From positions 1 through 64,000 of IMG/VR virus record IMGVR_UViG_2923350032_000001: a stretch of 64,000 nt of DNA; one strand, written 5' to 3'. Numbering within the stretch: position 1 is the first letter of the stretch; each line of letters begins with the position of its first letter. The DNA is from a virus (lineage: Duplodnaviria; Heunggongvirae; Uroviricota; Caudoviricetes). Shown here one piece after another: positions 13,727-64,000 of this stretch. The notes beneath the pieces were generated by a model. That model made no database searches and was not told the DNA's origin. It saw nothing but the letters and a program-made list of their open reading frames with translations. A program made the translations under genes and the position numbers.

Positions 13727-13760
13727 ATAACTTCGTATAGCATACATTATACGAAGTTAT
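13727..13760 (+). other. loxP: loxP recombination site
   Basis: Exact ATAACTTCGTATA-GCATACAT-TATACGAAGTTAT, 435 bp upstream of cre. Confidence 0.98.
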
Positions 13761-14178
13761 CTTAAGGGTTATTGAACATGATCAATTTACCTGTAAATCC
13801 ATACAGTTCAATACCTTATCAGGTCAAATAGTGATCACTTGATCATTTGATCAAGGTTGCGCTACGTAAAATCTGCGAAATGTTGGCAGTGTTAGTGCTC
13901 CAGATTTTGCGTAGCGCACTTAGCACCACCAATCAATCAGAGGTGAAAAATGGGATATTCAGCTGCTAAAGTGTCCACTCATATTGAGCTTGAGAAAAAC
14001 CGTGGTTACTGGCGGGCAAAAGGGTTTGATCGTGATAGTTGTCAACTGTCATTATCGCGCGGTGAAGAGAAAATAGAGCGCACGCGCGGTCGCTGGCGTT
14101 TCTATGACGAGAACCATAAACAGGTAAAGGCAGAGCCGATCCTGTACACTTTACTTAAAACCATTATCTGAGTGTTAA

Positions 14179-15210
14179 ATGTCCAATTTACTGACCGTAC
14201 ACCAAAATTTGCCTGCATTACCGGTCGATGCAACGAGTGATGAGGTTCGCAAGAACCTGATGGACATGTTCAGGGATCGCCAGGCGTTTTCTGAGCATAC
14301 CTGGAAAATGCTTCTGTCCGTTTGCCGGTCGTGGGCGGCATGGTGCAAGTTGAATAACCGGAAATGGTTTCCCGCAGAACCTGAAGATGTTCGCGATTAT
14401 CTTCTATATCTTCAGGCGCGCGGTCTGGCAGTAAAAACTATCCAGCAACATTTGGGCCAGCTAAACATGCTTCATCGTCGGTCCGGGCTGCCACGACCAA
14501 GTGACAGTAATGCTGTTTCACTGGTCATGCGACGGATCCGAAAAGAAAACGTTGATGCCGGTGAACGTGCAAAACAGGCTCTAGCGTTCGAACGCACTGA
14601 TTTCGACCAGGTTCGTTCACTCATGGAAAATAGCGATCGCTGCCAGGATATACGTAATCTGGCATTTCTGGGGATTGCTTATAACACCCTGTTACGTATA
14701 GCCGAAATTACCAGGATCAGGGTTAAAGATATCTCACGTACTGACGGTGGGAGAATGTTAATTCATATTGGCAGAACGAAAACGCTGGTTAGCACCGCAG
14801 GTGTAGAGAAGGCACTTAGCCTGGGGGTAACTAAACTGGTCGAGCGATGGATTTCCGTCTCTGGTGTAGCTGATGATCCGAATAACTACCTGTTTTGCCG
14901 GGTCAGAAAAAATGGTGTTGCCGCGCCATCTGCCACCAGCCAGCTATCAACTCGCGCCCTGGAAGGGATTTTTGAAGCAACTCATCGATTGATTTACGGC
15001 GCTAAGGATGACTCTGGTCAGAGATACCTGGCCTGGTCTGGACACAGTGCCCGTGTCGGAGCCGCGCGAGATATGGCCCGCGCCGGAGTTTCAATACCGG
15101 AGATCATGCAAGCTGGTGGCTGGACCAACGTAAATATTGTCATGAACTATATCCGTAACCTGGATAGTGAAACAGGGGCAATGGTGCGCCTGCTGGAAGA
15201 TGGCGATTAG
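14179..15210 (+). CDS. cre: Cre site-specific tyrosine recombinase
   Basis: 343-aa ORF MSNLLTVHQNLPALPVDATSDEVRKNLMDMFRDRQAFSEHTWK... matches remembered P1 Cre. Confidence 0.98.
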   Translation: MSNLLTVHQNLPALPVDATSDEVRKNLMDMFRDRQAFSEHTWKMLLSVCRSWAAWCKLNNRKWFPAEPEDVRDYLLYLQARGLAVKTIQQHLGQLNMLHRRSGLPRPSDSNAVSLVMRRIRKENVDAGERAKQALAFERTDFDQVRSLMENSDRCQDIRNLAFLGIAYNTLLRIAEITRIRVKDISRTDGGRMLIHIGRTKTLVSTAGVEKALSLGVTKLVERWISVSGVADDPNNYLFCRVRKNGVAAPSATSQLSTRALEGIFEATHRLIYGAKDDSGQRYLAWSGHSARVGAARDMARAGVSIPEIMQAGGWTNVNIVMNYIRNLDSETGAMVRLLEDGD

Positions 15211-15227
15211 CCATTAACGCGTAAATG

Positions 15228-15244
15228 ATTGCTCTAATTCTTTG
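15228..15244 (+). promoter_or_regulatory. C1 operator-like site upstream of cra
   Basis: ATTGCTCTAATTCTTTG, 11-bp core match. Confidence 0.5.
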
Positions 15245-15260
15245 ATATTTATGGTGACAT

Positions 15261-15572
15261 ATGAGAAAGGATTTCAACATCGACGGAAAATATGTAGTGC
15301 TGTCTGTAAGCACTAATATTCAGTCGCCAGCCGTCATTGTCACTGTAAAGCTGAGCGATAGAATGCCTGATATTGATTCAATATCCATTGCGTTCCCTGT
15401 CAAAAGTATGCGTGGTGCTGAACATTTCGTGATGAATGCCACCGAGGAAGAAGCACGGCGCGGTTTTGCTAAAGTGATGTCTGAGTTTGGCGAATTTTTG
15501 GGGCACGTTGACAAAGCCCTTTCAATCAGTTCAGCAAGATCCAAAGCGTTAACAGCTTCCATGATGAAATAA
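15261..15572 (+). CDS. cra: Hypothetical protein in the P1 cra position
   Basis: 103-aa ORF between cre and ref, preceded by an operator-like site; a mirror ORF on the other strand was rejected. Confidence 0.45.
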   Translation: MRKDFNIDGKYVVLSVSTNIQSPAVIVTVKLSDRMPDIDSISIAFPVKSMRGAEHFVMNATEEEARRGFAKVMSEFGEFLGHVDKALSISSARSKALTASMMK

Positions 15573-15704
15573 AAAAAAGCCTGGCAAGGAGCCAGGCTGC
15601 ACAAAAGAGCGGGTTTGTATTCCGCATCCAATCAATCAAGAAGGAGTATAGCACACAGGTACTGAAGTGAAAAAATGTGATTCGCGATAAACAAAATATC
15701 TACC

Positions 15705-15721
15705 ATTGCTCTAATTGATTG
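15705..15721 (+). promoter_or_regulatory. C1 operator upstream of ref
   Basis: ATTGCTCTAATTGATTG about 100 bp upstream of the ref start. Confidence 0.6.
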
Positions 15722-15820
15722 TTATAATTGAGCCGCAGTTTTTGTCAACTACGAAGACGTTGCCATTACTTCACTCCTTGACATCATTGGCGGCCATTAG
15801 GCCGCCTTTTTTTTGACCAT

Positions 15821-16396
15821 ATGAAAACAATCGAACAAAAAATTGAACAGTGCCGCAAGTGGCAGAAGGCAGCCAGAGAACGAGCGATCGCTCGGCAACG
15901 GGAGAAGTTGGCTGATCCGGTCTGGCGAGAATCTCAATATCAGAAAATGCGGGATACTATCGACCGCCGTATCGCTAAACAGAAAGAGCGCCCACCAGCC
16001 AGCAAAACGCGGAAAAGTGCGGTAAAAATAAAATCTCGTGGCTTGAAGGGACGAACACCGACGGCAGAGGAACGGCACATAGCCAATGCTCTTGGCGCTC
16101 TCCCCTGCATTGCGTGCTATATGCATGGAGTAATATCTGAAGAGGTGTCTCTGCACCATATTTCCGGTCGTACCGCGCCTGGTTGTCACAAAAAGCAATT
16201 GCCACTTTGTAGATGGCACCACCAGCATGCAGCACCGGCTGAAGTAAGAGCAAAATACCCCTGGCTGGTCCCTGTTCATGCCGATGGTGTGGTTGGAGGC
16301 AAGAAAGAATTCACCCTGCTGAACAAGTCAGAGATGGAGTTACTGGCTGACGCCTATGAGGGGTCGTCTCAGAAAACGGAAAATAAAGCACGCTAA
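15821..16396 (+). CDS. ref: Ref, recombination enhancement function (HNH endonuclease), 3' end replaced by transposon sequence
   Basis: 191-aa [29 protein letters not shown]... with Cys/His HNH motifs; the last 11 codons and stop lie inside the Tn21-family inverted repeat. Confidence 0.85.
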
Positions 16397-16397
16397 G
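16360..16397. repeat. Tn21-family 38-bp terminal inverted repeat
   Basis: GGGGTCGTCTCAGAAAACGGAAAATAAAGCACGCTAAG. Confidence 0.85.
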
Positions 16398-19359
16398 CCG
16401 GTTGCAGAGGCCGTAGCGGCCTGAACTTCCCCGCGCCGATCTTGGCGCTGCTGCGCCATAGGTAATCACCGGTCAGGTTGATGTGCTCCCAGCCGAGTGG
16501 CGACAGGTACTGCAATAGCGAGTCATCGACGGCATGACCATTGCCGCGCAACGCATGCGCCGCACGCTCCAGGTAGACCGTGTTCCACAGCACGATGGCC
16601 GCCGTCACCAGGTTGAGGCCGCTGGCCCGGTAGCGCTGCTGCTCGAAACTGCGGTCACGGATTTCACCAAGGCGGTTGAAGAACACGGCACGGGCCAGCG
16701 CATTGCGCGCCTCGCCCTTGTTCAGCCCGGCATGCACGCGGCGGCGTAGCTCGACGCTTTGCAGCCAGTCGAGGATGAACAGCGTGCGCTCGATGCGGCC
16801 CAACTCGCGCAGCGCGACGGCCAAGCCGTTCTGGCGCGGGTAGCTGCCGAGTTTCCTGAGCATCAGCGAGGCCGTCACCGTGCCCTGCTTGATCGAGGTG
16901 GCCAGCCGCAGGATTTCGTCCCAATGGGCGCGGACGTGCTTGATGTTGAGCGTGCCGCCGATCATCGGCTTGAGCGCGTCATAGGCGGCATCGCCCTTCG
17001 GGATGTAGAGCTTGGTGTCGCCCAGGTCGCGGATGCGCGGCGCGAAGCGGAAGCCCAAGAGGTGCATCAGGGCGAAGACGTGATCGGTGAAGCCCGCCGT
17101 GTCGGTGTAGTGCTCCTCGATCCGCAGGTCGGATTCGTGGTACAGCAGGCCGTCGAGCACGTAGGTTGAGTCGCGCAGGCCGACATTGACCACCTTGGTG
17201 TGGAATGGCGCGTATTGGTCGGAGATGTGGGTGTAGAAAGTCCGTCCTGGGCTGCTGCCATATTTTGGGTTGATGTGCCCCGTGCTCTTTGCCTTGCTAG
17301 CGGTTCGGAAATTCTGTCCGTCCGATGATGATGTGGTGCCATCGCCCCAGTGCCCGGCAAAGGGATGCCGAAACTGAGCGTTGACCAGTTCAGCCAACGC
17401 TGTCGAGTACGTTTCGTCGCGGGTATGCCAGGCTTGCAGCCAAGCGAGCTTCGCGTAGGTCGTGCCGGGGCAGGACTCGGCCATCTTGGTCAGGCCCAGG
17501 TTGATCGCGTCGGCCAGGATCGTGGTCAACAACAGGTTCTTGTCCTTGGCCAGATCGCCCGATTTCAAGTGCGTGAAGTGCCGGGTGAAGCCCGTCCACT
17601 CATCGACTTCGAGCAGCAGTTCGGTGATCTTGACGTGCGGCAGGACCATGGCTGTCTGGTCTATCAGCGCCTGCGCGGTGTCGGGCACCGCCGCATCCAG
17701 CGGCGTGATCTTCAAGCCCGACTCGGTGATGATGGCATCCGGCAGGTCGTTGGCTGCCGCCATGCGGTTGACGGTGGCAAGTTGTGCTTCCAGCAGCGTC
17801 AGCCGCTCATGCAGATATTGTTCGCAGTCGGTGGCCACGGCCAGCGGCAATTCGCTGGACTGCTTGAGGCTGGTGAACTTCTCGGGCGGTACCAGGTAGT
17901 CCTCGAAGTCCTTGAACTGGCGTGAACCCTGCACCCAGATGTCGCCCGAGCGCAGGGAGTTCTTCAACTCGGACAGCGCGCACAGTTCGTAGTAGCGCCG
18001 GTCGATGCCGGCGTCGGTCATCACCAGTTTCTGCCAGCGCGGCTTGATGAAGCCGGTCGGTGCATCGGCTGGCAGCTTGCGGGCGTTGTCGGTGTTCATG
18101 CCGCGCAGCACCTCAATGGCATCAAGCACGTTTTTGGCGGCGGGCGCGGCCCGCAGCTTGAGCACGGCAAGGAATTCCGGTGCATAGCGGCGCAGGGTGG
18201 CGTAGCTCTCGCCGATGCGATGCAGGAAATCGAAGTCATCGGGTTGCGCGAGCTTCTGCGCCTCGGTGACGCTCTCGGCAAAGGAATCCCAGGACATGAC
18301 GGCCTCGATGGCGGCAAACGCATCGCGGCCTGATTGCTTGGCGTCGATCAGCGCCTGACCGATGCGCCCGTACAGACGTACCTTGGCGTTGATGGCCTTG
18401 CCTGACGCCTGGAACTGCTGCTGATGCTTATTCTTGGCAGCGTTAAACAGCTTACCCAGGATGCGGTCGTGCAGGTCGATGATTTCGTCGGTGACGGTGG
18501 CCATGCCCTCGGTGGCCAGCGCCACGAGAGTGGCGTAGCGCCGTTGCGGCTCGAATTTGGCCAGGTCGGCGGGTGTCATCTGGCCGCCCTCGCGGGCAAT
18601 CTTGAGCAGGCGGTTCTGGTGAACCAGCCGCTCGATGCCGGTAGGCAGATCGAGTGCCTGCCATGCCTTGAGGCGTTCGATGTGTTCCAGCATATGCCGC
18701 GAATTTGGCTTGGCCGGAGACTGGCGCAACCAAGCCAACCAGGTCGTCTTGCCGTTGTCCCGGCGCTTGAGCAGATCGTCGAGGCGGCGGCGATGCGCGT
18801 CCGCCAGTGGTTCGGCCAAGGCGTCGTAGATGCGCCGGTTAGCACGGGTGATCGCCTCTGCACTCGCCCGCTCGACGGCGTTGAGGGCGGGCAGAATGAC
18901 CGACTGCCGCCGCAGGTGCCCGATCAAGGCGCTGGCCAGCACGATGCCTTTGTCGGTTTGCATCGCCAGCTCGGTCAGCATCTGGACGGCCTGCCGGTAA
19001 TGGCTCATGGTGAAGGGCCGGAAACCGAACACGGTTTGCAGCTCGCTCAGGTGCTCGCGCCGGGTCTGCTCCCGCTGGCCGTACTCGTTCCAGCTTTCGA
19101 CGCCGACCTTGAGCTGGTCGGCGACCAGCTTCAACAAGGGCGGGAACGGTAGTTCATCGACGCCCAGGATGACGCCGGGAAAGCGCAGGTAACAGAGCTG
19201 CACCGCGAAGCCCAGCCGATTGGCTGGCCCGCGCCGCTGTCGGATGATCGAGAGGTCGGTATCGTTGAATGTGTAATGTCGGATCAGGTCGTCCTTGGAG
19301 TCCGGCAACGCCAGCAGGCTTTCCCGCTCGGCGGCGGACAGGATGGAACGACGTGGCAT
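16393..19359 (-). CDS. tnpA: Tn3-family transposase TnpA (Tn21-like)
   Basis: 988-aa [34 protein letters not shown]... Confidence 0.95.
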
Positions 19360-19361
19360 AT

Positions 19362-19922
19362 TTACTGATCCGTTCTCAAGTATTGATACAGGGTTTCGCG
19401 ACTGATTCCGAATTCACGAGCAAGCTTGGTCTTTTGCTCGCCAGCCTCGATACGTTGGCGCAGTTCGGCAATACGCTCAGACGACAGGGATTTCTTCCTG
19501 CCACGGTAAGCCCCGCGTTGCTTGGCGAGCGCAATACCCTCGCGCTGACGCTCGCGGATCAGGGCGCGCTCGAACTCGGCGAACGCGCCCATCACCGAGA
19601 GCATCAGGTTCGCCATCGGAGAGTCTTCGCCAGTAAAACTGAGGTGTTCCTTGACGAATTCGATATGCACGCCGCGTTGTGTCAGCGTTTGCACGATCCG
19701 GCGCAAATCATCGAGATTGCGCGCCAGGCGATCCATGCTATGCACCACCACGGTGTCGCCGGTGCGGGCGAAGCTTATCAGCGCTTCCAGTTGCGGACGC
19801 TTGACATCCTTGCCGGATGCCTTGTCGCTAAAAGCGCGATCAACCTTGACGCCTTCCAGTTGCCGTTCCGGGTTCTGGTCGAAGGTGCTGACCCTGATAT
19901 ACCCAATGCGCTGTCCAGTCAT
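19362..19922 (-). CDS. tnpR: Serine resolvase TnpR (Tn21-like)
   Basis: 186-aa [24 protein letters not shown]... with C-terminal HTH. Confidence 0.95.
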
Positions 19923-20432: not shown

Positions 20433-21252
20433 GGCACTGTTGCAAAGTTAGCGATGAGGCAGCCTTTTGTCTTATTCAAAGGCCTTACATTTCAAAAACT
20501 CTGCTTACCAGGCGCATTTCGCCCAGGGGATCACCATAATAAAATGCTGAGGCCTGGCCTTTGCGTAGTGCACGCATCACCTCAATACCTTTGATGGTGG
20601 CGTAAGCCGTCTTCATGGATTTAAATCCCAGCGTGGCGTTGATTATCCGTTTCAGTTTGCCATGATCGCATTCAATCACGTTGTTCCGGTACTTAATCTG
20701 TCGGTGTTCAACGTCAGACGGGCACCGGCCTTCGCGTTTGAGCAGAGCAAGCGCGCGACCATAGGCGGGCGCTTTATCCGTGTTGATGAATCGTGGGATC
20801 TGCCACTTCTTCACGTTGTTGAGGATTTTACCCAGAAACCGGTATGCAGCTTTGCTGTTACGACGGGAGGAGAGATAAAAATCGACAGTGCGGCCCCGGC
20901 TGTCGACGGCCCGGTACAGATACGCCCAGCGGCCATTGACCTTCACGTAGGTTTCATCCATGTGCCACGGGCAAAGATCGGAAGGGTTACGCCAGTACCA
21001 GCGCAGCCGTTTTTCCATTTCAGGCGCATAACGCTGAACCCAGCGGTAAATCGTGGAGTGATCGACATTCACTCCGCGTTCAGCCAGCATCTCCTGCAGC
21101 TCACGGTAACTGATGCCGTATTTGCAGTACCAGCGTACGGCCCACAGAATGATGTCACGCTGAAAATGCCGGCCTTTGAATGGGTTCATGTGCAGCTCCA
21201 TCAGCAAAAGGGGATGATAAGTTTATCACCACCGACTATTTGCAACAGTGCC
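20433..21252 (-). mobile_element. Complete IS26 (820 bp, IS6 family)
   Basis: 14-bp IRs at 20433-20446 and 21239-21252; internal 234-codon transposase. Confidence 0.95.
20485..21189 (-). CDS. tnpA: IS26 transposase
   Basis: [34 protein letters not shown]... 234 aa; the ORF-track N-terminal extension MLMELH is rejected. Confidence 0.95.
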   Translation of the reverse strand: MNPFKGRHFQRDIILWAVRWYCKYGISYRELQEMLAERGVNVDHSTIYRWVQRYAPEMEKRLRWYWRNPSDLCPWHMDETYVKVNGRWAYLYRAVDSRGRTVDFYLSSRRNSKAAYRFLGKILNNVKKWQIPRFINTDKAPAYGRALALLKREGRCPSDVEHRQIKYRNNVIECDHGKLKRIINATLGFKSMKTAYATIKGIEVMRALRKGQASAFYYGDPLGEMRLVSRVFEM

Positions 21253-21266
21253 CCATATCAGCCCCC

Positions 21267-21857
<591 letters not shown>

Positions 21858-21963
21858 TTAACTGATTCTACGAGATGTCATTTGTCCATTGTGCCAACTG
21901 TTATTATGGATATCGTAATTCGTACGAATCGCGCTGTTACAGGATGTATAGCAACCTTAATAA

Positions 21964-23196
21964 TTATTTGAATATATCGGTTATAGTTGGGTAATTATAC
22001 ATCTTAAGCTTATCTCTAAATTTCATAGAAAATATAGGGTCTACCTTACATCTCTGTGAGAGCTTTGCAAGCCTTAGCTCCCTCTCTTTCATAATATCTT
22101 TGTATTCTCTATCAATACTCTCCTGAATTTGCTGATTCTCAACAGGAGACGGTTTTGTAATTTTATCCCATTGATAAGTTGGATTCTCAGTGTAATTTAA
22201 ATCATCATTTTGAAGTAATTTCTCAAGATGAGACATAGCATTTTCATATAGCATTCTATCTTGGGGCAACATACTTGCAACACGCACTTCGCTTTCAATT
22301 TCCGATACTATCATTTCAAGTTGACGTTTTTCCATCGCTATAGCTACACGGAATGGAAACAGGGCTTCTTGCTTAATCATTTGACAATTCACATTATTGT
22401 TTATGTCACTAAGTAATTTTACAAATGAGAACTTCGCTAAAGGCTGCTGATTTATGACACTCTGTCTAACTGGCATTGTGTAGCTCGGTGTTTTTTCAAG
22501 TGTTTTCTTCACTTGCTCTATAGCAACATTAGGAGTTTTGAGAACAGTCTTTGCTGGAATACGTAGCACCATAAACCCCTCCTTTATTGAATATTCATCA
22601 CGAATACGATCTCGCTCTATTTGTTCAGGGGATGAATGCCATGCTGCACCATCAATTTCTATAATTTGGCGTCCATTTACGACAAAATCAAAACGATAAC
22701 GCTTATAGGGCACTTGCATTTCAAGCACTAAGTCAGGAGAAACTAACATTCCAGATTTAGGTTTAAGATTAAACTCTGCAACCATTTTACGAAGAAATGC
22801 CTCCTCAGCCGGAGATTCGCAACCTTTGCAAAATATATCAAGCCAGTTTTCTGCGTCAGCGTCAACAGTTTGCCACCATGCTAACAGTCCGCGTCGGTGT
22901 CCATATAATCGTTCATCTGACGGTTTTGTTAATGGCTTTGTTAACGGTTTAATTAAGGGTTCATTTAACGGCTTATTTAACGGATTTAATAACGATTCAT
23001 TTAATGGTTTGATTGACGGTCTATTTGACGACTCAATCGGTGGTTTAGATGATGATTTGTTTTTTTTATCAAAACCTACGATAGTTATATATGCTACATA
23101 TAGCATCATGCCTGCAACAGGCCATACACATGGATAAATCACGTAACACAACAGTAATAGAACAATAGTCCCAAAAAATGTTAACTTCTTCCGCAT
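21964..23196 (-). CDS. Membrane-anchored protein with Pro-rich tetrapeptide repeats and a DUF559/Vsr-like endonuclease-fold domain
   Basis: 410 aa; N-terminal TM helices; PLNKPLNEPLIKPLTKPLTKP repeats; motif IEIDGAAWHSS...RDRIRDEY...GFMVLRI; low-GC gene. Confidence 0.55.
   Translation of the reverse strand: MRKKLTFFGTIVLLLLCYVIYPCVWPVAGMMLYVAYITIVGFDKKNKSSSKPPIESSNRPSIKPLNESLLNPLNKPLNEPLIKPLTKPLTKPSDERLYGHRRGLLAWWQTVDADAENWLDIFCKGCESPAEEAFLRKMVAEFNLKPKSGMLVSPDLVLEMQVPYKRYRFDFVVNGRQIIEIDGAAWHSSPEQIERDRIRDEYSIKEGFMVLRIPAKTVLKTPNVAIEQVKKTLEKTPSYTMPVRQSVINQQPLAKFSFVKLLSDINNNVNCQMIKQEALFPFRVAIAMEKRQLEMIVSEIESEVRVASMLPQDRMLYENAMSHLEKLLQNDDLNYTENPTYQWDKITKPSPVENQQIQESIDREYKDIMKERELRLAKLSQRCKVDPIFSMKFRDKLKMYNYPTITDIFK
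22922..23030. repeat. Imperfect 12-bp tandem repeat array (about 9 units) inside ORF 21964-23196
   Basis: Units GGNTTNNTTAAY repeated head to tail; encodes the Pro-rich tetrapeptide repeats. Confidence 0.7.
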
Positions 23197-57314: not shown

Positions 57315-57944
57315 ATGAACATACCACCCAGGGCGACTAGGACTGTTTTTTGTGTCGGTAGCGGACCGTCACTCACTCGTGAGGACTGTGCTGCTATAGA
57401 AAAAACTGGCTGTTCAATCATCGCGGTTAACAATTCCTGGCAGATGTTCGATGACATTTATGCCTTATACGCCGGTGATTTGTCATGGTGGAAGCAATAC
57501 GGATCCACCATACCGGGAGGGAGATTCCGCAAAGTGACAGCCAACCTGGCGGCGGCGAAATCATTTTCGTTGGAGTACAGGCGATATTGTGGACCGGCGG
57601 AAGGGGTAAATAGCGGCGCGCAGGCTATCAGTCTGGCTGCTGAATCAGGGGCTGAAGTAGTGGTATTAGTCGGCTATGACTGTTCTCTGCAAAACGGCCT
57701 TCATTGGCATGGCGCGCACCCTCAAGCACTACGGAATCCAACGCAGGTGTCTATTTCAAAATGGCAACAGCAGTTCCTGGATACCCGCAAAAAACACGCA
57801 GATTTACATATTTTGAATGCAAGTAGGAGCAGTGCAATTCAATGTTTCCCAAGAATAAATTTAGAGGCAGTGATCGCGTTATTATCGTCGGCAGTGGCCC
57901 AAGCGCCGCAAACTTTGTTGCGCCGCGCGGAGTGCCGATTATAG
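57315..57944 (+). CDS. DUF115/MptE-like protein, copy 1
   Basis: Motif VFCVGSGPSL...IIAVN; start at the internal Met by alignment with copy 2; C-terminal extent uncertain because it reads into copy 2. Confidence 0.4.
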   Translation: MNIPPRATRTVFCVGSGPSLTREDCAAIEKTGCSIIAVNNSWQMFDDIYALYAGDLSWWKQYGSTIPGGRFRKVTANLAAAKSFSLEYRRYCGPAEGVNSGAQAISLAAESGAEVVVLVGYDCSLQNGLHWHGAHPQALRNPTQVSISKWQQQFLDTRKKHADLHILNASRSSAIQCFPRINLEAVIALLSSAVAQAPQTLLRRAECRL

Positions 57945-58006
57945 CGGTAAATGGGGCCATCGACTGGCTTAACCGCGCTTCTTATTTTTTCACCCTTGAC
58001 GTATAG
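57842..58006 (+). pseudogene. DUF115/MptE-like protein, copy 2, N-terminal fragment interrupted by an IS91-family element
   Basis: 54 codons MFPKNKFRGSDRVIIVGSGPS...IIAVNGA; homologous C-terminal part resumes at about 59850-60156. Confidence 0.45.
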
Positions 58007-59850
58007 GAAATTGAAAAACCAGTCGATACCATTGTCCACGCCTTATGCCACGTGAGCCTTTCTGCTTTTCCCACCACTCCGGTGGTTTCCCTCTCTGTAT
58101 GGTCGATTTTTATACCGTAACAGGCTGTTTTTTATACTTTCACCGATTCCCGGGCACACTTAGCCTGTGTCAGGCCGGCATATACCTCAGTAGACTGATA
58201 TCCCGCGCGTTTTTCTTCAGCCCTGATACATTCAGCCCCGCAATGGCCCGGCGGTATACCATCCGGCAGCCACACAGCACGCATTCGAACGGGTCACGAC
58301 TCAGGAACTGTTTCACCATTTGTGCATAGCACACTTTCGCCACTGGTTCCGGTTTATCCATCCCCAGTGCACGGTACACCTGCGGCAGCTTCTCTCCACA
58401 CACACGGTTGGCAAGGAACCCGAAGTACCTCACCATCTTAAAAAACTTCTCCGGGATGTGCTGTTTCAGCCTCGCGACCAGCTCACGCTGTGTCAGCGTT
58501 TCCGTCGCCGTTTCTCCCGTTTTGTGGTCCAGGTAACGGAAGCTCAGGCTTGCCCCTCCGTTGTAATGAGCCAGTCGGGAAGCCGCTATTGGTGGCTTCT
58601 TCAGATAACGACCCAGGTAGCGTGCCGTATTCCGCCCTCCGGCTGTCTTCTTCGACATGTACACATGCCAGTATTTTCCGCCGGATTTCAGCACCAGGCT
58701 TCTCCACTGTGATTCCGTCGTGATATGTGACAACGACTCCGGCATTGCTATCCCCTCTGACCACGCTTTCAGAAGCAGCTGCCGCATATTCCACATCCAC
58801 CGTGAACGCATCGCGTCTTTCAGGAAGCTCAGCTTTTTCCACTGACCATGCTTATTCAGACCTCCACAGGTTACAGACACATGTACATGCGGATGCCAGT
58901 TGAGACGACGGCCATACGTGTGGATGGCGCAGAAGATACCGGGTTCCAGCCCCCGTTTTCGGGCGGCATACAGCAGATTCTCCACCGCCAGACGGCACAC
59001 GTCATTCAGCAGCCAGCGGTTGCTTTCGAACACCGGCCACAGCGTGTCCGGCAGGGTGAAGACCAGATGTACCCAGTCGCAGTCAGGAAGACGATTCAGC
59101 TGTGTTGCTGTCCACAGGTCTGTGGCCTTCTTTCCGCAGGACGGGCAGGCACGGCTGCCGCATGAGTTGGTCAGGTACTTTACGTGCTGACAGTCCGGGT
59201 TATCACACCCGAACTCTTTTACACCCAGTATCCGTGTGCCGCAGGCCAGCATTTTGGTGACGGCTTCAACCTCGATATCGCGCAGACCGCCCGCATCCAG
59301 GAAGGACGTCCAGCACTGGTTGGCTGTGAACAGACGTTTCAGAGGGCGGGGAGTAAAACCGGACAACATGAGGATGGATTAAACCCCGGTATCCTGTAGC
59401 AGGGTAAGGGCTGCTGTATCGCCACGGCGCTTCAGGATGGAGGTCGTCACCATCGCAGGTGGTGGGTCCATGGGTTTGAGCATTTTCATCCAGTCCCATT
59501 CTCGTTGTGAGAGCTTCTCAGCACCAACAGAGAGCAGAACTGTATCGATACTTTTGCGGGTCAACATAAGGGGATGAGTCCTTAATAAAACAGGTCCTCA
59601 GAGCATACATATTCTGCGGGGCGTGCGGCAACAACAGGACGAACCGGGGCGGTTTTCAATTTGCAGCCGCCAGGCTGCCGTGGTTCATCCATCCCCAGAC
59701 AATATGCGGCGCGTTGGTCGTGGCCGCCGTCGCCGTGGTGTTTGTTATTGCATGGCACTACCCGATGTTAAAGAACGTGAAGTCAGAGATGGCGTTCTGT
59801 GCTTCCGTCGTGTGGCTGAACGCGGCATGGAGCCAAAAAATACGAATTCT
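58007..59850 (-). mobile_element. IS91-family element (rolling-circle HUH transposase); ends approximate
   Basis: 399-aa transposase plus typical small upstream ORF, located between the two halves of the copy-2 gene. Confidence 0.5.
58170..59369 (-). CDS. IS91-family HUH transposase
   Basis: 399 aa; N-terminal Zn-binding Cys cluster; HUH motif (HPHVH). Confidence 0.8.
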   Translation of the reverse strand: MLSGFTPRPLKRLFTANQCWTSFLDAGGLRDIEVEAVTKMLACGTRILGVKEFGCDNPDCQHVKYLTNSCGSRACPSCGKKATDLWTATQLNRLPDCDWVHLVFTLPDTLWPVFESNRWLLNDVCRLAVENLLYAARKRGLEPGIFCAIHTYGRRLNWHPHVHVSVTCGGLNKHGQWKKLSFLKDAMRSRWMWNMRQLLLKAWSEGIAMPESLSHITTESQWRSLVLKSGGKYWHVYMSKKTAGGRNTARYLGRYLKKPPIAASRLAHYNGGASLSFRYLDHKTGETATETLTQRELVARLKQHIPEKFFKMVRYFGFLANRVCGEKLPQVYRALGMDKPEPVAKVCYAQMVKQFLSRDPFECVLCGCRMVYRRAIAGLNVSGLKKNARDISLLRYMPA

Positions 59851-60137
59851 CCCGAGTGGTGGGCGTGGCGCTGGTCCGCACATTTCGGCCTTTGCGAAGA
59901 TGAGAATGAAATTGCCAGCGGCAATAGTGCATATGGTGCTCTGAACCTGGCTTTCCATATCGGATTCAAACATGTAGCTCTGGTGGGCGTTGACGCTACG
60001 CAAGAACTACGCGTTCACTCCGGCGGCACGCCAAAAAATCTAAGTCACCTGCCTTTGTTATTCCAGTCTGCGCGTGAACAGATTGACGTTGTTTCATGCG
60101 GGAAAATGGGAGGTATTCCGCAGATGACTCTTAAAGA

Positions 60138-60830
60138 ATGGCTGAAAAATACATGATGGCACCCACAATTTATCACCGTATCGACGGTACCAAATACAGG
60201 AATGTCTGGGTTGTTGGTGATCTGCATGGTTGCTACACCAGACTGATGTCCGAACTCCATCGTGTGGATTTTGACCCGGCGCAGGATTTACTGATATCGG
60301 TCGGCGACCTTATCGATCGCGGTACTGAAAATGTCGAATGTCTGGAACTATTGCAGATGCCCTGGTTCAGGGCAGTGATGGGGAACCATGAGCGGCTGAT
60401 GATTGATGCGTTAAGTCCAGATGGCAACGTGAATAACTGGCTAATGAATGGCGGACAATGGTTCTTCATGCTGGACACTGATCAGGAAATATTAGCCTGG
60501 GCGCTGGTGGAGCTGGTAAAGCGTCTGCCCTATATCATTGAGTTGAACACCGGGCAAGAAACTATCGTTATAGCCCATGCCGACTATCCGGATAATGAAT
60601 ACCAATTCGGTAAGGAGGTACCGCTTTTCAACGTTGTCTGGGCGCGCGAGCGTATCAGTGATTCGATGGATGATATTGGTGGCGAAATTTCGGGCGCAGA
60701 TCGTTTTATCTTTGGTCACACTCCGGTGAAAAGCCCGAAGACATTCTGGAATCAGCAGTATATCGACACTGGTGCCGTATTTTGCGGAAACCTGACATTG
60801 ATGAAAGTGAAAGGTGATGGTGCAGCATGA
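60138..60830 (+). CDS. ppp: Ser/Thr protein phosphatase (lambda PPase-like)
   Basis: 230 aa with GDLHG, GDLIDRG, GNHE metallophosphatase motifs. Confidence 0.85.
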
Positions 60831-61528
60831 AGATTGCTTTAGTTTTTCGCTCTGGTGGTGACTATAACGCTTCCGATGTGCAGTGGCTGGTTAATCAACT
60901 GCCAAAAGGCTATGAAATTATTTGCCTGACAGACCTGAAGCGTTTACATGTACCTGGCGTCAAAGTTGTCCCATTGATCAACCAGTGGCAAAAGTGCCGT
61001 GGCTGGTGGGCGAAAATCGAGTTGTTCCGACCGGATATAACCGATGATCTGTTCTATCTGGATTTGGACACGGTTATTGCCGGTGATATACGCCCAATCC
61101 TAGAGCATCCACCAACCAGCTTCACCATGCTTAGGGATTTTTACCATCCACAATATCGTGGCAGCGGTGCCCTGTGGATACCAAATAGTGTTAAAGCGCA
61201 TATCTGGAGTTCATTCTGGCAAGATCCGGAAGGTTGGATTTCTCGTTGTGTCACTACTGAGTGTTGGGGTGACCAGGGGTTCTTACGAAAGGTTATGGGC
61301 GATGATACACCAGCATTTCAGGATCTGTATCCAGGATGGTTTGTAAGTTACAAGGCCGATGTTGTGGAACCTGGTTCAAAATATGCGAGCGCGCGTTACT
61401 CCAGGGGGAATGGGGCATTACCAAAAGACTGCCGAATAATCTTTTTCCACGGCAAACCGCGACCTCGCGAAGTGTCAGAGGATTGGCTTCCCCTTATCAG
61501 CTCATTTTTTGAGCGAGAATCAGAATAA
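60827..61528 (+). CDS. Putative GT-A-type glycosyltransferase-like protein (DxD motif)
   Basis: 233 aa; YLDLDTV motif; coupled to ppp. Confidence 0.35.
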
Positions 61529-61529
61529 T

Positions 61530-61546
61530 ATTGCTCTAATAATTCC
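61530..61546 (+). promoter_or_regulatory. C1 operator
   Basis: ATTGCTCTAATAATTCC. Confidence 0.6.
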
Positions 61547-61578
61547 GTATTTTTAAAACGTGATGTACACTCATTACG

Positions 61579-61595
61579 TTTTTTATTAGAGCAAT
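61579..61595 (-). promoter_or_regulatory. C1 operator, inverted partner
   Basis: TTTTTTATTAGAGCAAT; 32 bp from the preceding operator. Confidence 0.55.
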
Positions 61596-61609
61596 CTACA
61601 AGGTGCACT

Positions 61610-61828
61610 ATGTGGCCATTCCGACGGAAATATCACTACTGGCTGATCGCCTTTGTTACGCCGACCGGCGGTATCAGGCATGTCATCACCAGGTATCGCA
61701 ACAAGAGACTCACCTTAGCCAGAATTTTACAGGCTGCCATAGGTGAGGGACTGGATACAAATTGCGTAGTCCTTCCTCCTTCATACTTAGGAAAAATGAC
61801 CGAAGCACAAGCTAATACGGAACTTTGA
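61610..61828 (+). CDS. Small hypothetical protein
   Basis: 72-aa ORF after the operator pair. Confidence 0.35.
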   Translation: MWPFRRKYHYWLIAFVTPTGGIRHVITRYRNKRLTLARILQAAIGEGLDTNCVVLPPSYLGKMTEAQANTEL

Positions 61829-61829
61829 A

Positions 61830-63092
61830 ATGAGCACTTCAACACAAAACCAATCAATCGAAAATGTATGTATCCCTGATGTCCTGAATGCCGGTATCCC
61901 GGCCATTATCCAGAACATCCGGGCCGCGCAACGCCGCGTTAGTTGTGATGACCTCACAGCACGTTTTTTTGATAATGCGGTTCAGTCAGCGGAGATGCTT
62001 CACGCACAGCTTATTGATGTTTATAACGCAGAAGCTGATAGCCATAACTCCCTGGTAGATGCAGCTGAAAATATGCAGTTGGATCTCGGTCTGAAGGGTA
62101 AAGAAATTGAAGAGCTTCAGCTGCAAATTGAACATTTGAAACGCCAGCAACAGGACGCGATCGACGATGCGACGCATGACGCCAACCAGCGTGCTGATAA
62201 TGCCGAACGTATAAGCATTGAGCTGGAAACAAAACTCAATGAAATGACCGCGATGGTTGAACTGCGGAACTCACAGATTTCAACGCTAAAATCTCAATAT
62301 AAAGAGATCATGAAACTTGATCCTTTTAACCTTGAGAAACGCTATAACAAAGCTAAAAGCGAGCGACAGGAACTGCGTAAGCAGGTCGCCGATCTTAACC
62401 AACAGCTCAAAAAAACTATTAAAGATGCAAGCGAAGCGCGCGTGGCATTTGCTAATAAAAAAGCAGAGGTTACCGCGCTGGTTAATGAGAATGCCAAATT
62501 TGCGACGCTCAAGAAGGAAATGTATGGCATTACTGAGCGCCGTTTCCCTGCAAGCAAACTTCATCCGACGTTAGGGCAAATATCCTTCTTCCCGCGCCTC
62601 CTGGCTTATGGGATCTCATCGCCTAAAGAGTTCAATAACGAGCGTCCTTATATCGTGTCTAAGCTGGACTTTGCTTATCAGTTCTGCTGCGACATGGGCT
62701 ATGCCATTGATATCCGAATCAACGAATGGTTGATGCCAAACTTCCAGCCGTTGGCAATTTTCCGCGAGTTCCAGCCGGAAGGTTGGGTAGAGTTCTTCCA
62801 TGAATTGATCTGTAAAGAGATGGAAAGCCGCCGCCCGGAACTGGTCCGTCGAGTTGAGTGGGCGCAAGAGGTTATGTTGGCAGATGCAGAGCTGCCGTTC
62901 GAACCGGAATTCATTGATGATCTGGCAACTAAAGGGCTGCATACCCTGTTTGATGTGGTTACCCGCCGTCATGAGCAGTTGGTTGTCGAATTGGGTTTAG
63001 AGGAAACTGCGGCAAGAAGACTTCTCGATGTTTGCTATGCACGTAGCGATGCATGGGAAAAAGAGAACGGCGGCACTATTTACGTTCGCTGA
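61830..63092 (+). CDS. Coiled-coil protein with conserved C-terminal domain
   Basis: 420-aa ORF. Confidence 0.4.
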   Translation: MSTSTQNQSIENVCIPDVLNAGIPAIIQNIRAAQRRVSCDDLTARFFDNAVQSAEMLHAQLIDVYNAEADSHNSLVDAAENMQLDLGLKGKEIEELQLQIEHLKRQQQDAIDDATHDANQRADNAERISIELETKLNEMTAMVELRNSQISTLKSQYKEIMKLDPFNLEKRYNKAKSERQELRKQVADLNQQLKKTIKDASEARVAFANKKAEVTALVNENAKFATLKKEMYGITERRFPASKLHPTLGQISFFPRLLAYGISSPKEFNNERPYIVSKLDFAYQFCCDMGYAIDIRINEWLMPNFQPLAIFREFQPEGWVEFFHELICKEMESRRPELVRRVEWAQEVMLADAELPFEPEFIDDLATKGLHTLFDVVTRRHEQLVVELGLEETAARRLLDVCYARSDAWEKENGGTIYVR

Positions 63093-63164
63093 TAGTTACA
63101 GTGTCACTTTTAATGCTGGTGGAGTGCGCCCACCAGCATTTTTTTCGTCCAATGAGGAGGGCAT

Positions 63165-63671
63165 TTGAGTATTTTCAATAAACACGCACACCAGGAACGT
63201 CCGTACATCGTCATAGTAGATATTGATGGAACGATATCAGAGGCAACGGAAGACAGGCTGCATTTACTTCCACCACCTGGCAAAGGTGCATTAACAGAGC
63301 ACTGGAACGAGTTTAACCTTGCCTGTGACACTGATGCTCCCATCACTCCAGTTATTGATATGGTGCGCCAGTTGTCCAGCATTTACACGCTCTGGTTTGT
63401 AACCGGGCGCTGTGAGATAGCCAGGGATAAAACACGAGCCTGGCTGCGGAAGTACGTAACAAATGGGGCTGAGCCTTTGCTATCTATGCGTCCTGCCACC
63501 GATGACAGAAATGACGGCCATGCAAAGATTGATCTCCTGAAGAAAATTGGTCTAAGTAAAATTGCGTTCGCGCTGGAAGATAAGATTGAAGTGGCGCGTG
63601 TTTTCAGGAGTCACGGCGTACTTACGTTAATGGTCAGGGAATATGAAAATGCGCTTCTTCATCAACAATAA
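63165..63671 (+). CDS. HAD-superfamily phosphatase-like protein
   Basis: 168 aa with N-terminal DIDGT motif. Confidence 0.5.
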   Translation: MSIFNKHAHQERPYIVIVDIDGTISEATEDRLHLLPPPGKGALTEHWNEFNLACDTDAPITPVIDMVRQLSSIYTLWFVTGRCEIARDKTRAWLRKYVTNGAEPLLSMRPATDDRNDGHAKIDLLKKIGLSKIAFALEDKIEVARVFRSHGVLTLMVREYENALLHQQ

Positions 63672-63687
63672 TTGCTCTAATAAATCT
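63671..63687 (+). promoter_or_regulatory. C1 operator
   Basis: ATTGCTCTAATAAATCT followed by TGATTTTTA, same extended motif as at 13667. Confidence 0.7.
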
Positions 63688-63769
63688 TGATTTTTAAAAC
63701 AGAGAAAGTGAAAATAAAAATATGCCGCAAGGGGCGCGGCATGTATCCAATCAATCACAGGAGCTGAAG

Positions 63770-63856
63770 ATATGAACACGGCATTCAAAATCATTATGAC
63801 CGCGATCTATTTCTGGCTGTTCTCTATCACTTTTGGCGGCATCGTCGCGCATGGGT
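63770..63856 (+). CDS. Small hydrophobic peptide
   Basis: 28 codons MNTAFKIIMTAIYFWLFSITFGGIVAHG, about 85 bp after a C1 operator. Confidence 0.3.
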
Positions 63857-64000
63857 AAGGGGAGTATATTAGCCATTTGGAACCCCACGAGCTCTTGCGG
63901 GTTTAATTAAGAACCCGCAAGAAAAACACGAATTGGGCTATATTTTTCCGCCTACGCCTTTAAACTTCTCAATAAACGAGACGATTTTCTGGAAAACTGC

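Follow-up and report, generated by a model that had tools for sequence, protein, structure and literature searches.

Two adjacent genes in this stretch of DNA begin with the same motif, and the second of them is broken by an insertion sequence (IS). This raises the question of whether the pair are true paralogs, which element interrupted the second gene, and whether the interruption was a single event or one sign of a locus in decay. The window (the whole stretch that was analysed, 64,000 nucleotides) belongs to a P1-like phage-plasmid. We hold it about 93% probable that one IS1294-type IS transposed into pmgP of a P1-like operon, in which pmgO and pmgP are ancient tandem paralogs and the module to which they belong is dispensable. 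With gene names taken from the P1 annotation, the locus comprises the following features:

57185..57340, + strand: pmgN, corresponding to 79495-79650 in the P1 annotation, with a phrog_2350 match
57282..57944, + strand: pmgO ("copy 1"), intact, 220 aa, 100% amino acid identity to P1 PmgO, phrog_4603
57842..57998, + strand: pmgP 5′ fragment, codons 1-52 plus 1 nt, placed by alignment to P1
57999..59686, - strand (that of tnpA): IS1294-type IS91-family IS, 1,688 bp, a precise insertion relative to P1
59687..60156, + strand: pmgP 3′ fragment, remainder of codon 53 to codon 208 and stop, with the NSAYGA...VGVDAT core
60138..60830, + strand: ppp, lambda-type Ser/Thr phosphatase, intact (Pfam Metallophos, 9e-16; P1 annotation)
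60827..61528, + strand: pmgQ, predicted glycosyltransferase, intact (phrog_1962 glycosyltransferase, 2.5e-128)

The first small gene of this C1-controlled pmgN-pmgO-pmgP-ppp-pmgQ operon, pmgN, overlaps the start of pmgO, and the start of ppp overlaps the end of pmgP by 19 bp. Gene order and the upstream region are unchanged from P1, and both flanks align to it free of gaps (56001-57999 at 99.6%, 59684-62000 at 99.0%), whereas pmgP, uninterrupted in P1, is interrupted in the window. When the insert is removed in silico, the spliced PmgP has 208 aa and zero differences from P1 PmgP. The replicon as a whole departs further from complete P1, in that P1 2617-45982 has been replaced by Tn3-family and IS26-type elements, leaving the host plasmid without approximately 43 kb of P1 structural genes. 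The original prediction of two adjacent genes was correct, and both are plus-strand open reading frames (ORFs), but the first does not begin at 57315: this position is Met12, an alternative start, and the ORF begins at 57282. Residues 1-15 of PmgO, like its C-terminal tail, are unconserved and modelled with low confidence.

Aligning the window with phage P1 and with three independent copies of the element, itself single-copy in the window, fixed the bounds of the insert. Where P1 reads CACCCTTGATCCATCC, the window reads CACCCTTG followed directly by ACGTATAGG at the left junction, and GCCGTGGTTC followed directly by ATCCATCC at the right. No P1 bases were lost or duplicated at the insertion site. 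A target-site duplication is thus absent, as the flanks rejoin to P1, with a one-base ambiguity (A) resolved by the other copies; these start with ACGTATAGG, end with CCGTGGTTC, and have CTTG, GTTC and GTTC as their ori-side tetranucleotides. A break in the second gene had been anticipated after about 54 codons. The break is real and lies after codon 52 plus 1 nt (57998), the ORF running two codons into the insert to give 54 aa. The insert, previously put at about 1.8 kb, measures exactly 1,688 bp (57999-59686), and pmgP resumes at 59687 rather than near 59850. Upstream of 59687, the frame of the 3′ fragment stays open into the IS as far as a GTG at position 59623. A search with the exact pmgP::IS junction found no match in phages, plasmids, complete E. 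coli genomes, viral contigs or metagenome contigs, and the allele appears to be represented by this single sequence.

Within and beside the insert, we located the following:

57995..57998, + strand: CTTG target tetranucleotide, occurring once in uninterrupted P1 and abutting the ori end of the IS
57999..58100, + strand: oriIS end, starting with ACGTATAGG, downstream of the tnpA stop
58170..59369, - strand: tnpA, 399-aa HUH/Y2 rolling-circle transposase, intact
59379..59567, - strand: 62-aa ORF upstream of tnpA, RefSeq hypothetical protein WP_000957857.1
59663..59686, + strand: terIS end, palindrome GCAGCC-GCCA-GGCTGC and then CGTGGTTC, the element ending in GTTC

The HUH transposase and small upstream ORF that had been foreseen are therefore both located. 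TnpA matches Y2_Tnp (PF04986, 3e-57), the N-terminal Zn-binding domain Zn_Tnp_IS91 (PF14319, 1.9e-21) and the NCBIfam IS91 transposase model NF033538 (309.7 bits, cutoff 125), and has HPHVH (residue 159) as its HUH motif and YLGRY (residue 251) as its Y-x3-Y motif. Together with the precise insertion relative to P1, these models bear out that the second gene was split by an IS91-family element. The 62-aa ORF is a different matter. It has no Pfam, NCBIfam or PHROG match, and a sister element with 94% identity does not conserve this region and carries an unrelated upstream ORF of its own; the status of the 62-aa ORF as a real gene is unsupported. We considered whether it might be the counterpart of IS91 orf121 and rejected this, since it matches no family and does not resemble the corresponding ORF in the sister element; according to the literature, orf121 is unique to IS91.

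One copy in a Salmonella genomic island and another in an E. coli plasmid are each 99.94% identical to the IS over its full length, and over 2,400 E. coli replicons contain matches to it. By sequence it is an IS91-family element of IS1294 type, a level at which IS1294 and IS1294b are not separable here. The name IS1294 derives from the 99.9% identity to copies on plasmids of a type for which IS1294 has been reported, and from published features of its ends and target. This element has been reported on enterobacterial resistance plasmids, including P1-like IncY ones, of which p1108-IncY (MG825379) is a published P1-like plasmid with IS1294. The structural features described for IS1294/IS1294b are matched here (a Zn-binding/HUH/Y2 tnpA, CTTG or GTTC beside oriIS, a palindrome and GTTC at terIS); nothing structural differs, and the insertion site at pmgP codon 53 alone is absent from the collections searched. 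Its tnpA and both ends are intact, and the IS is complete and apparently functional. Plasmid CP122754, which covers 88% of the query, contains a different, 94%-identical IS91-family element located after ppp and not in pmgP.

The ends of the element are also those of the published type. IS1294 has been described as lacking inverted repeats and making no direct repeats, as targeting GTTC or CTTG, and as having a GTTC cleavage tetranucleotide at terIS and a single palindrome at each end. Following the literature, we took as oriIS the end that lies 3′ of tnpA and adjoins the target tetranucleotide; this end contains a small palindrome, CCACC-N5-GGTGG, at 58066-58080. The two ends, ACGTATAGGAAATTG... 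and ...GCTGCCGTGGTTC, are different and form no terminal inverted repeats, as neither matches the other when reverse-complemented. A repeat search detected no inverted repeats at either end at its thresholds. The palindromes, with stems of 6 bp and 5 bp, were identified by eye, folding and literature rather than statistically, the DNA folds of both ends being no more stable than those of shuffled sequences (z between -0.93 and +0.24, transferred strand). The tetranucleotide with the ori end and the hairpin with the GTTC ter end are on the same strand, the plus strand of the window. Comparison of the ends with IS91/IS1294, suggested as a check beforehand, thus gave agreement in the target, the terIS GTTC, the palindromes and the lack of inverted repeats. 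While the preferred published target is GTTC, CTTG has also been reported, and the insertion in the window lies immediately 3′ of a CTTG on the coding strand of pmgP, within the conserved FFTLDPS codons. At this position, the Salmonella island copy likewise has CTTG, whereas the E. coli plasmid copy and the sister element have GTTC.

These features are compatible with the published model for the IS91 family. By analogy, the HUH/Y2 transposase would have nicked 3′ of CTTG or GTTC at oriIS in a donor replicon, rolling-circle replication would have displaced a strand through tnpA as far as the GTTC at terIS, and the displaced strand would then have been ligated to pmgP on the 3′ side of its CTTG.

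The relationship between the two genes is distant but demonstrable. PmgO (VFCVGSGPS...CSIIAVNN) and PmgP (VIIVGSGPS...VPIIAVNG) share their N-terminal motif, which is all that pairwise BLASTP aligns (36 residues, E 0.003). When family profiles were compared, the alignment extended over 164 columns (E 7.4e-14, probability 98.1%, approximately 26% identity) and took in a second shared motif, NSG..A..LA...GA..v.LvGyDcs in PmgO and NSAyGAl.LA...Gfk.VaLVGvDat in PmgP. Both proteins match the same profile region of PF01973, at 23.4 bits (5.7e-5) for PmgO and 20.9 bits for PmgP, each below the gathering threshold of 34.6. As a precomputed PF01973 match is present for many homologs of each, the two families would seem to border on or belong to PF01973, with these two sequences falling short of the threshold. 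The best structural neighbor in the PDB of both predicted models (AlphaFold pLDDT 86 for PmgO) is Maf (5mu5), and each model has further matches among sialyltransferases and thiamin pyrophosphokinases. The tandem MptE-like (DUF115) paralogs of the original prediction are in this way upheld by full-length profile homology, sub-threshold PF01973 matches and a common neighbor.

From these models, PmgO and PmgP are predicted to have a Maf/MptE-like fold. Like Maf and MptE/PF01973 (formerly DUF115), they have an N-terminal GxGPS loop and then a beta-strand ending in N, but each consists of a single domain and has about 200 aa, against the 632 aa and extra domains of Maf. To call them glycosyltransferases would go beyond what such models establish, since the fold family includes the pyrophosphokinases MptE and thiamin pyrophosphokinase. 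More specific still is the RefSeq/PHROG label "alpha-2,3-sialyltransferase" for PmgO, which comes from Campylobacter Cst-I/Cst-II (GT42). This label says more than the evidence allows and is unsupported: against Cst-II in the PDB, the PmgO profile reached only E 0.2-0.6 and the PmgP profile gave no match, and neither protein matched the Pfam sialyltransferase families.

As for consequences, the insertion leaves a 52-codon N-terminal stub and a 156-codon remainder of pmgP, so that no full-length enzyme can be made, while pmgO, ppp and pmgQ are intact. The 5′ fragment retains the GSGPS/IIAVN nucleotide-binding motif, and the stub would keep only this loop. A polar effect on ppp and pmgQ is possible, as 1.7 kb of antisense IS now lies between them and the operon promoter. 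That the insertion is tolerated can be explained by the dispensability of the module for P1 plaque formation. In a P1 CRISPRi study (PMC10695390), pmgO, pmgP, ppp and pmgQ were non-essential for plaque formation, and an earlier study, as cited there, also found the same four genes to be non-essential; on pmgN, the two studies are in conflict, according to the same source. An annotation should mark pmgP as a pseudogene broken at codon 53, place the IS at 57999-59686, and treat the overlap between pmgO and pmgP as native.

This last point bears on an alternative put forward in the original prediction, in which the run of copy 1 some 100 bp into copy 2 is a trace of the paralogs recombining or decaying. 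The locus would then have been deteriorating before the IS arrived, or independently of it. The overlap exists, as predicted, and measures 103 bp (57842-57944), the first 103 bp of pmgP, and the last 25 or so residues of PmgO are indeed unconserved among homologs and modelled with low confidence. P1 is annotated with the identical overlap (80152-80254), however, and its PmgO is 100% identical to that of the window. O and P frames overlap or abut in distant prophages too, and the paralogs, at approximately 26% amino acid identity at the profile level, share too little nucleotide similarity to provide a substrate for recent recombination. We consider this explanation extremely improbable; the overlap is the native P1 arrangement and is a product of neither recombination nor decay. 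Only slightly more credible, and still very unlikely, is that the shared motif is a convergent nucleotide-binding loop in genes that are not homologous. While the short BLASTP alignment, with the remainder undetectable pairwise, would fit convergence, it is hard to reconcile with the second motif in the 164-column profile alignment, with a match to one Pfam family over one profile region, or with predicted structures that share Maf as top neighbor and both resemble sialyltransferases and thiamin pyrophosphokinases. Failure of the motifs to align as homologs over the full length had been named in advance as grounds for dropping the idea of paralogy, and the profiles show that they do align. PmgO and PmgP are genuine paralogs of ancient origin, and the overlapping tandem that they form is ancestral. 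Prophages of other families and phyla also have O followed by P in frames that overlap or abut, which indicates that the duplication is ancient.

The insertion itself could be read in other ways than as a simple transposition. One-ended transposition of IS1294 occurs at 1-14%, so that the element might have arrived in that way, or by homologous recombination, and carry passenger DNA, and IS copies commonly cause misassembly, so that a multi-copy IS might have produced an artefact. But independent copies share precisely these 1,688 bp, ACGTATAGG through GTGGTTC, joining the flanks restores continuous P1 sequence and a complete PmgP, and the left junction is at a canonical CTTG; a chimera reproducing all of these features is very unlikely, and we give these explanations hardly any weight. 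Somewhat less remote, though in our view still unlikely, is that the insertion was not neutral and was selected, either for the inactivation of pmgP or because the IS alters expression of ppp and pmgQ through polar silencing or an outward promoter. This operon has been disrupted repeatedly in P1-like elements: in phage phi456, an IS1 lies in pmgM and pmgO is unannotated, and CP122754 has its related IS91-family element immediately past ppp. Several frameshifted PmgO and PmgP variants are also present in the protein collection, and an open frame leads from GTG 59623 into the 3′ part of pmgP. Yet repeated disruption is equally expected of non-essential genes, CTTG and GTTC sites are frequent, and the frameshift variants may be sequencing errors. 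A promoter scan of 57000-60300 gave counts no higher than in shuffled sequence, with none directed out of the ter end, and the terminator scan of the same region gave weak terminator-like sites only. With approximately 43 kb of structural genes already lost, selection on phage late functions is also unlikely. A single, tolerated transposition of the IS into pmgP remains the reading that we favor. It adds another case of a common resistance-plasmid IS entering a P1-like phage-plasmid, here one that mobile elements had already remodelled heavily. The event is ordinary, its parts are known, and everything in the observation was already known. An intact IS1294 beside ppp and pmgQ could mobilise both by one-ended transposition.

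The sole lead of wider interest is the pmgO-pmgP-pmgQ module of predicted sugar-transferring enzymes. These three genes form a module conserved in unrelated prophages of distant phyla, having been found in prophages of Gammaproteobacteria, Alphaproteobacteria and Bacteroidota. O-then-P adjacency was present in 9 of 19 loci, including those in Pseudomonas, Zhongshania, Microbulbifer and Brevundimonas, usually with Q, and a pmgQ-like gene co-occurred with a P-like gene in 15 of the 19. In a Pseudomonas prophage, the gene following the O- and P-like genes is 42% identical to pmgQ. Judging by predicted fold, these are most likely sugar-transferring enzymes that act late in infection. A more tentative suggestion, which we regard as possible but doubtful, is that two Maf/MptE-fold paralogs and a predicted glycosyltransferase make up an uncharacterised, widely conserved module that might glycosylate a virion protein or the host envelope late in infection. 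By analogy with the Maf and Cst enzymes, the sugar could possibly be a nonulosonic or ulosonic acid. If the glycosylation reading is true, pmgP::IS1294 would be a natural knock-out of one step. As a separate observation on its surroundings, the module lay directly after the major capsid gene in two cases, and methyltransferase or sulfotransferase genes were sometimes among its neighbors.

The stretch around the two adjacent genes matches phage P1 (NC_005856) without gaps, at 99.6% identity over window positions 56001-57999 and 99.0% over 59684-62000, and P1 annotation of the matching stretch gives it as the C1-controlled operon pmgN-pmgO-pmgP-ppp-pmgQ. The original prediction of two neighbouring genes, the second of them split, was confirmed; the genes are P1 pmgO and pmgP, and with corrected coordinates the features are:

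57282-57944, pmgO, 220 aa
57842-57998 and 59687-60156, pmgP, in two pieces around the insert
59369-58170, minus strand, tnpA, the transposase gene of the insert, 399 aa, far above threshold with IS91 transposase models
upstream of tnpA, a 62-aa ORF, labelled hypothetical in RefSeq

Neither translated pmgO nor translated pmgP, the latter after removal of the insert, differs at any position from its P1 counterpart, and pmgO, ppp and pmgQ are intact. The small gene pmgN (57185-57340) overlaps the start of pmgO by 59 nt.

In P1 coordinates, the two matching blocks share 4 nt. Where the uninterrupted P1 sequence reads CACCCTTGATCCATCC, the window reads CACCCTTG followed by ACGTATAGG at one junction and GCCGTGGTTC followed by ATCCATCC at the other. 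Copies in other contexts fix the boundaries: the full 1,688 bp occur at 99.94% identity in a Salmonella genomic island and in an E. coli plasmid (one copy each), and a sister element, 94% identical, occurs in a P1-like plasmid. In all three the element begins ACGTATAGG and finishes CCGTGGTTC, and the preceding base completes CTTG, GTTC or GTTC, respectively. The element is therefore 57999-59686, inserted 3' of CTTG with no bases lost and none duplicated. It is present once in the window, and matches to it occur in over 2,400 E. coli replicons, nearly all of them plasmids. By sequence comparison, genes and element are both already known at at least 99% identity; only the insertion site in pmgP is unrecorded, with no record of it in the collections searched.

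That the second gene carries an IS91-family element was also correctly predicted, as judged by transposase models and end features. The tnpA product matches Pfam Zn_Tnp_IS91 and Y2_Tnp, reaches 309.7 bits with NCBIfam NF033538 (cutoff 125), and contains the HPHVH and YLGRY motifs; the ter end has the palindrome GCAGCC-GCCA-GGCTGC, followed by CGTGGTTC. IS1294 has been described as lacking inverted and direct repeats, targeting GTTC or CTTG, and having GTTC at terIS and a single palindrome at each end, with one-ended transposition at 1-14% (PMC13181058; PMC6052338). Our element agrees with this description and is assigned by its features to IS1294 or IS1294b; a P1-like IncY plasmid with IS1294 has been reported previously (PMC10101111). 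The 62-aa ORF has no family match and falls in the sole segment where the element is not conserved in its sister, and the sister has an unrelated upstream ORF of its own; going by these comparisons, its status as a gene is not established.

On the plus strand of the window, the target CTTG is followed by the ori end, the body, the hairpin and GTTC, which is the order predicted by the rolling-circle model of the IS91 family. Following the literature on this family, the transposase would nick oriIS, the end 3' of tnpA, on the 3' side of its tetranucleotide; a strand would then be displaced through tnpA, cut after the GTTC of terIS at the far end, and joined 3' of CTTG or GTTC in the target.

The insertion breaks pmgP after codon 52 plus 1 nt, within the conserved FFTLDPS motif, and the stub keeps the GSGPS...IIAVN loop and loses the NSAYGA...VGVDAT core. 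A 1.7 kb antisense IS now lies ahead of ppp and pmgQ; consensus scans were uninformative on transcription of these two genes across the element. Two predicted frames were created by the insertion. A putative chimeric frame at 59623-60156 (plus strand), beginning at a GTG within the IS ter end, would join 21 IS-derived residues to PmgP residues 53-208, and a putative 58-aa ORF at 59582-59758 (minus strand) spans the ter junction.

Since pmgO, pmgP, ppp and pmgQ scored as non-essential for P1 plaque formation, by CRISPRi and in earlier work cited there (PMC10695390), such an insertion can be tolerated. In the same screen pmgN scored as essential and all downstream operon genes as non-essential; an earlier study had classed pmgN as non-essential. 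The operon is disrupted elsewhere as well: phage phi456 (locus L031, 496-999) has IS1 in pmgM, with insB beside a shortened pmgM and pmgO unannotated, and in plasmid CP122754 (L003, 5086-6798) the sister element sits at GTTC directly after ppp. Several frameshifted PmgO and PmgP variants also occur in our protein collection, some possibly through sequencing error. Proteins listed with disruptions of this operon are P0002, P0014, P0016, P0117, P0119 and P0135.

The two genes had further been proposed to be paralogs of a DUF115/MptE-like gene, and this holds. Aligned as families (30 PmgO-family and 31 PmgP-family proteins), they match over 164 columns (probability 98.1%, E 7.4e-14), and the matched columns include the loop at the N terminus as well as the NSG/NSA...LvGyD/LVGvD motif. 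The family HMMs find each other's members (3e-6 and 1.6e-9), the PHROG families cross-hit, and both proteins match the same profile region of Pfam MptE-like PF01973, under the gathering score. From these similarities pmgO and pmgP are paralogs of ancient relationship, and because of the profile alignment, HMM cross-matches and sub-threshold PF01973 matches, the DUF115/MptE-like label is right at fold level. The closest structural neighbours are Maf and MptE. An "alpha-2,3-sialyltransferase" label for PmgO (RefSeq, PHROG) is unsupported by sequence, with Cst-I/II at E 0.2 or worse. Separately, the misspelling 'norphogenetic protein' has spread over hundreds of RefSeq entries for PmgO and PmgP.

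The reading of pmgO into pmgP had been taken as a sign of recombination or decay between the paralogs. This did not stand, as the 103-bp overlap is identical in P1 annotation and pmgO-pmgP tandems occur in distant taxa. Of PmgO, only the last ~25 residues fall deep in the overlap, and these are unconserved among homologs and of low model confidence. Among 19 loci encoding PmgP relatives, in taxa including Pseudomonas, Zhongshania, Microbulbifer, Brevundimonas and Sinomicrobium, the tandem is found in 9, and 15 have a PmgQ relative within a few kb; ppp lies between the pmgP- and pmgQ-like genes in P1-like elements only. With the overlap native and the tandem widespread, the pair belongs to an old conserved module and is not a recent duplication recombining or decaying. 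This pmgO-pmgP-pmgQ module of predicted sugar-transferring enzymes is the lead to keep.

Module loci in prophages of distant taxa include L008 (5379-7253), L019, L022, L024, L025 and L029 (6001-6594). In a Pseudomonas prophage the module is immediately downstream of the major capsid gene, and on a Gilvimarinus-like contig a PmgP-like gene lies two small genes past the capsid gene; elsewhere the genes adjoin lysis or terminase genes, and a methyltransferase or sulfotransferase is sometimes a neighbour. These neighbourhoods suggest a late-expressed modification pathway, perhaps glycosylation.

The replicon itself is an incomplete phage. Its P1 backbone leaps from P1 coordinate 2616 (lox-cre-c8-ref, window 13744-16360) to 45983 (pmgC, window 21242-21891), and P1 2617-45982 (~43 kb) is absent from the window. 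The absent stretch includes res/mod (restriction-modification), darB, portal and lysis genes, the dar operon, cin, tail fibres, baseplate, sit (tape measure) and tub (tail tube). In its place are:

16393-19359, minus strand, Tn3-family (TnAs3-type) transposase
19362-19922, minus strand, resolvase-sized ORF (putative resolvase of the Tn3-family element)
20485-21207, minus strand, IS26-type transposase

The replicon is probably a defective P1-derived plasmid that forms no virions. The window ends (1-2107 and 61351-64000) map only 744 bp apart in phage vB_EcoM-673R5 (ON470615.2), at 22391 and 21646 inside the hsdR region, which suggests that this plasmid is circular; the window may hold nearly all of a replicon of about 65 kb (~64.7 kb). 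Just past the pmgC remnant, a 410-aa ORF (21964-23196, minus strand) has weak, endonuclease-like matches to DUF559 and REase_MTES_1575.
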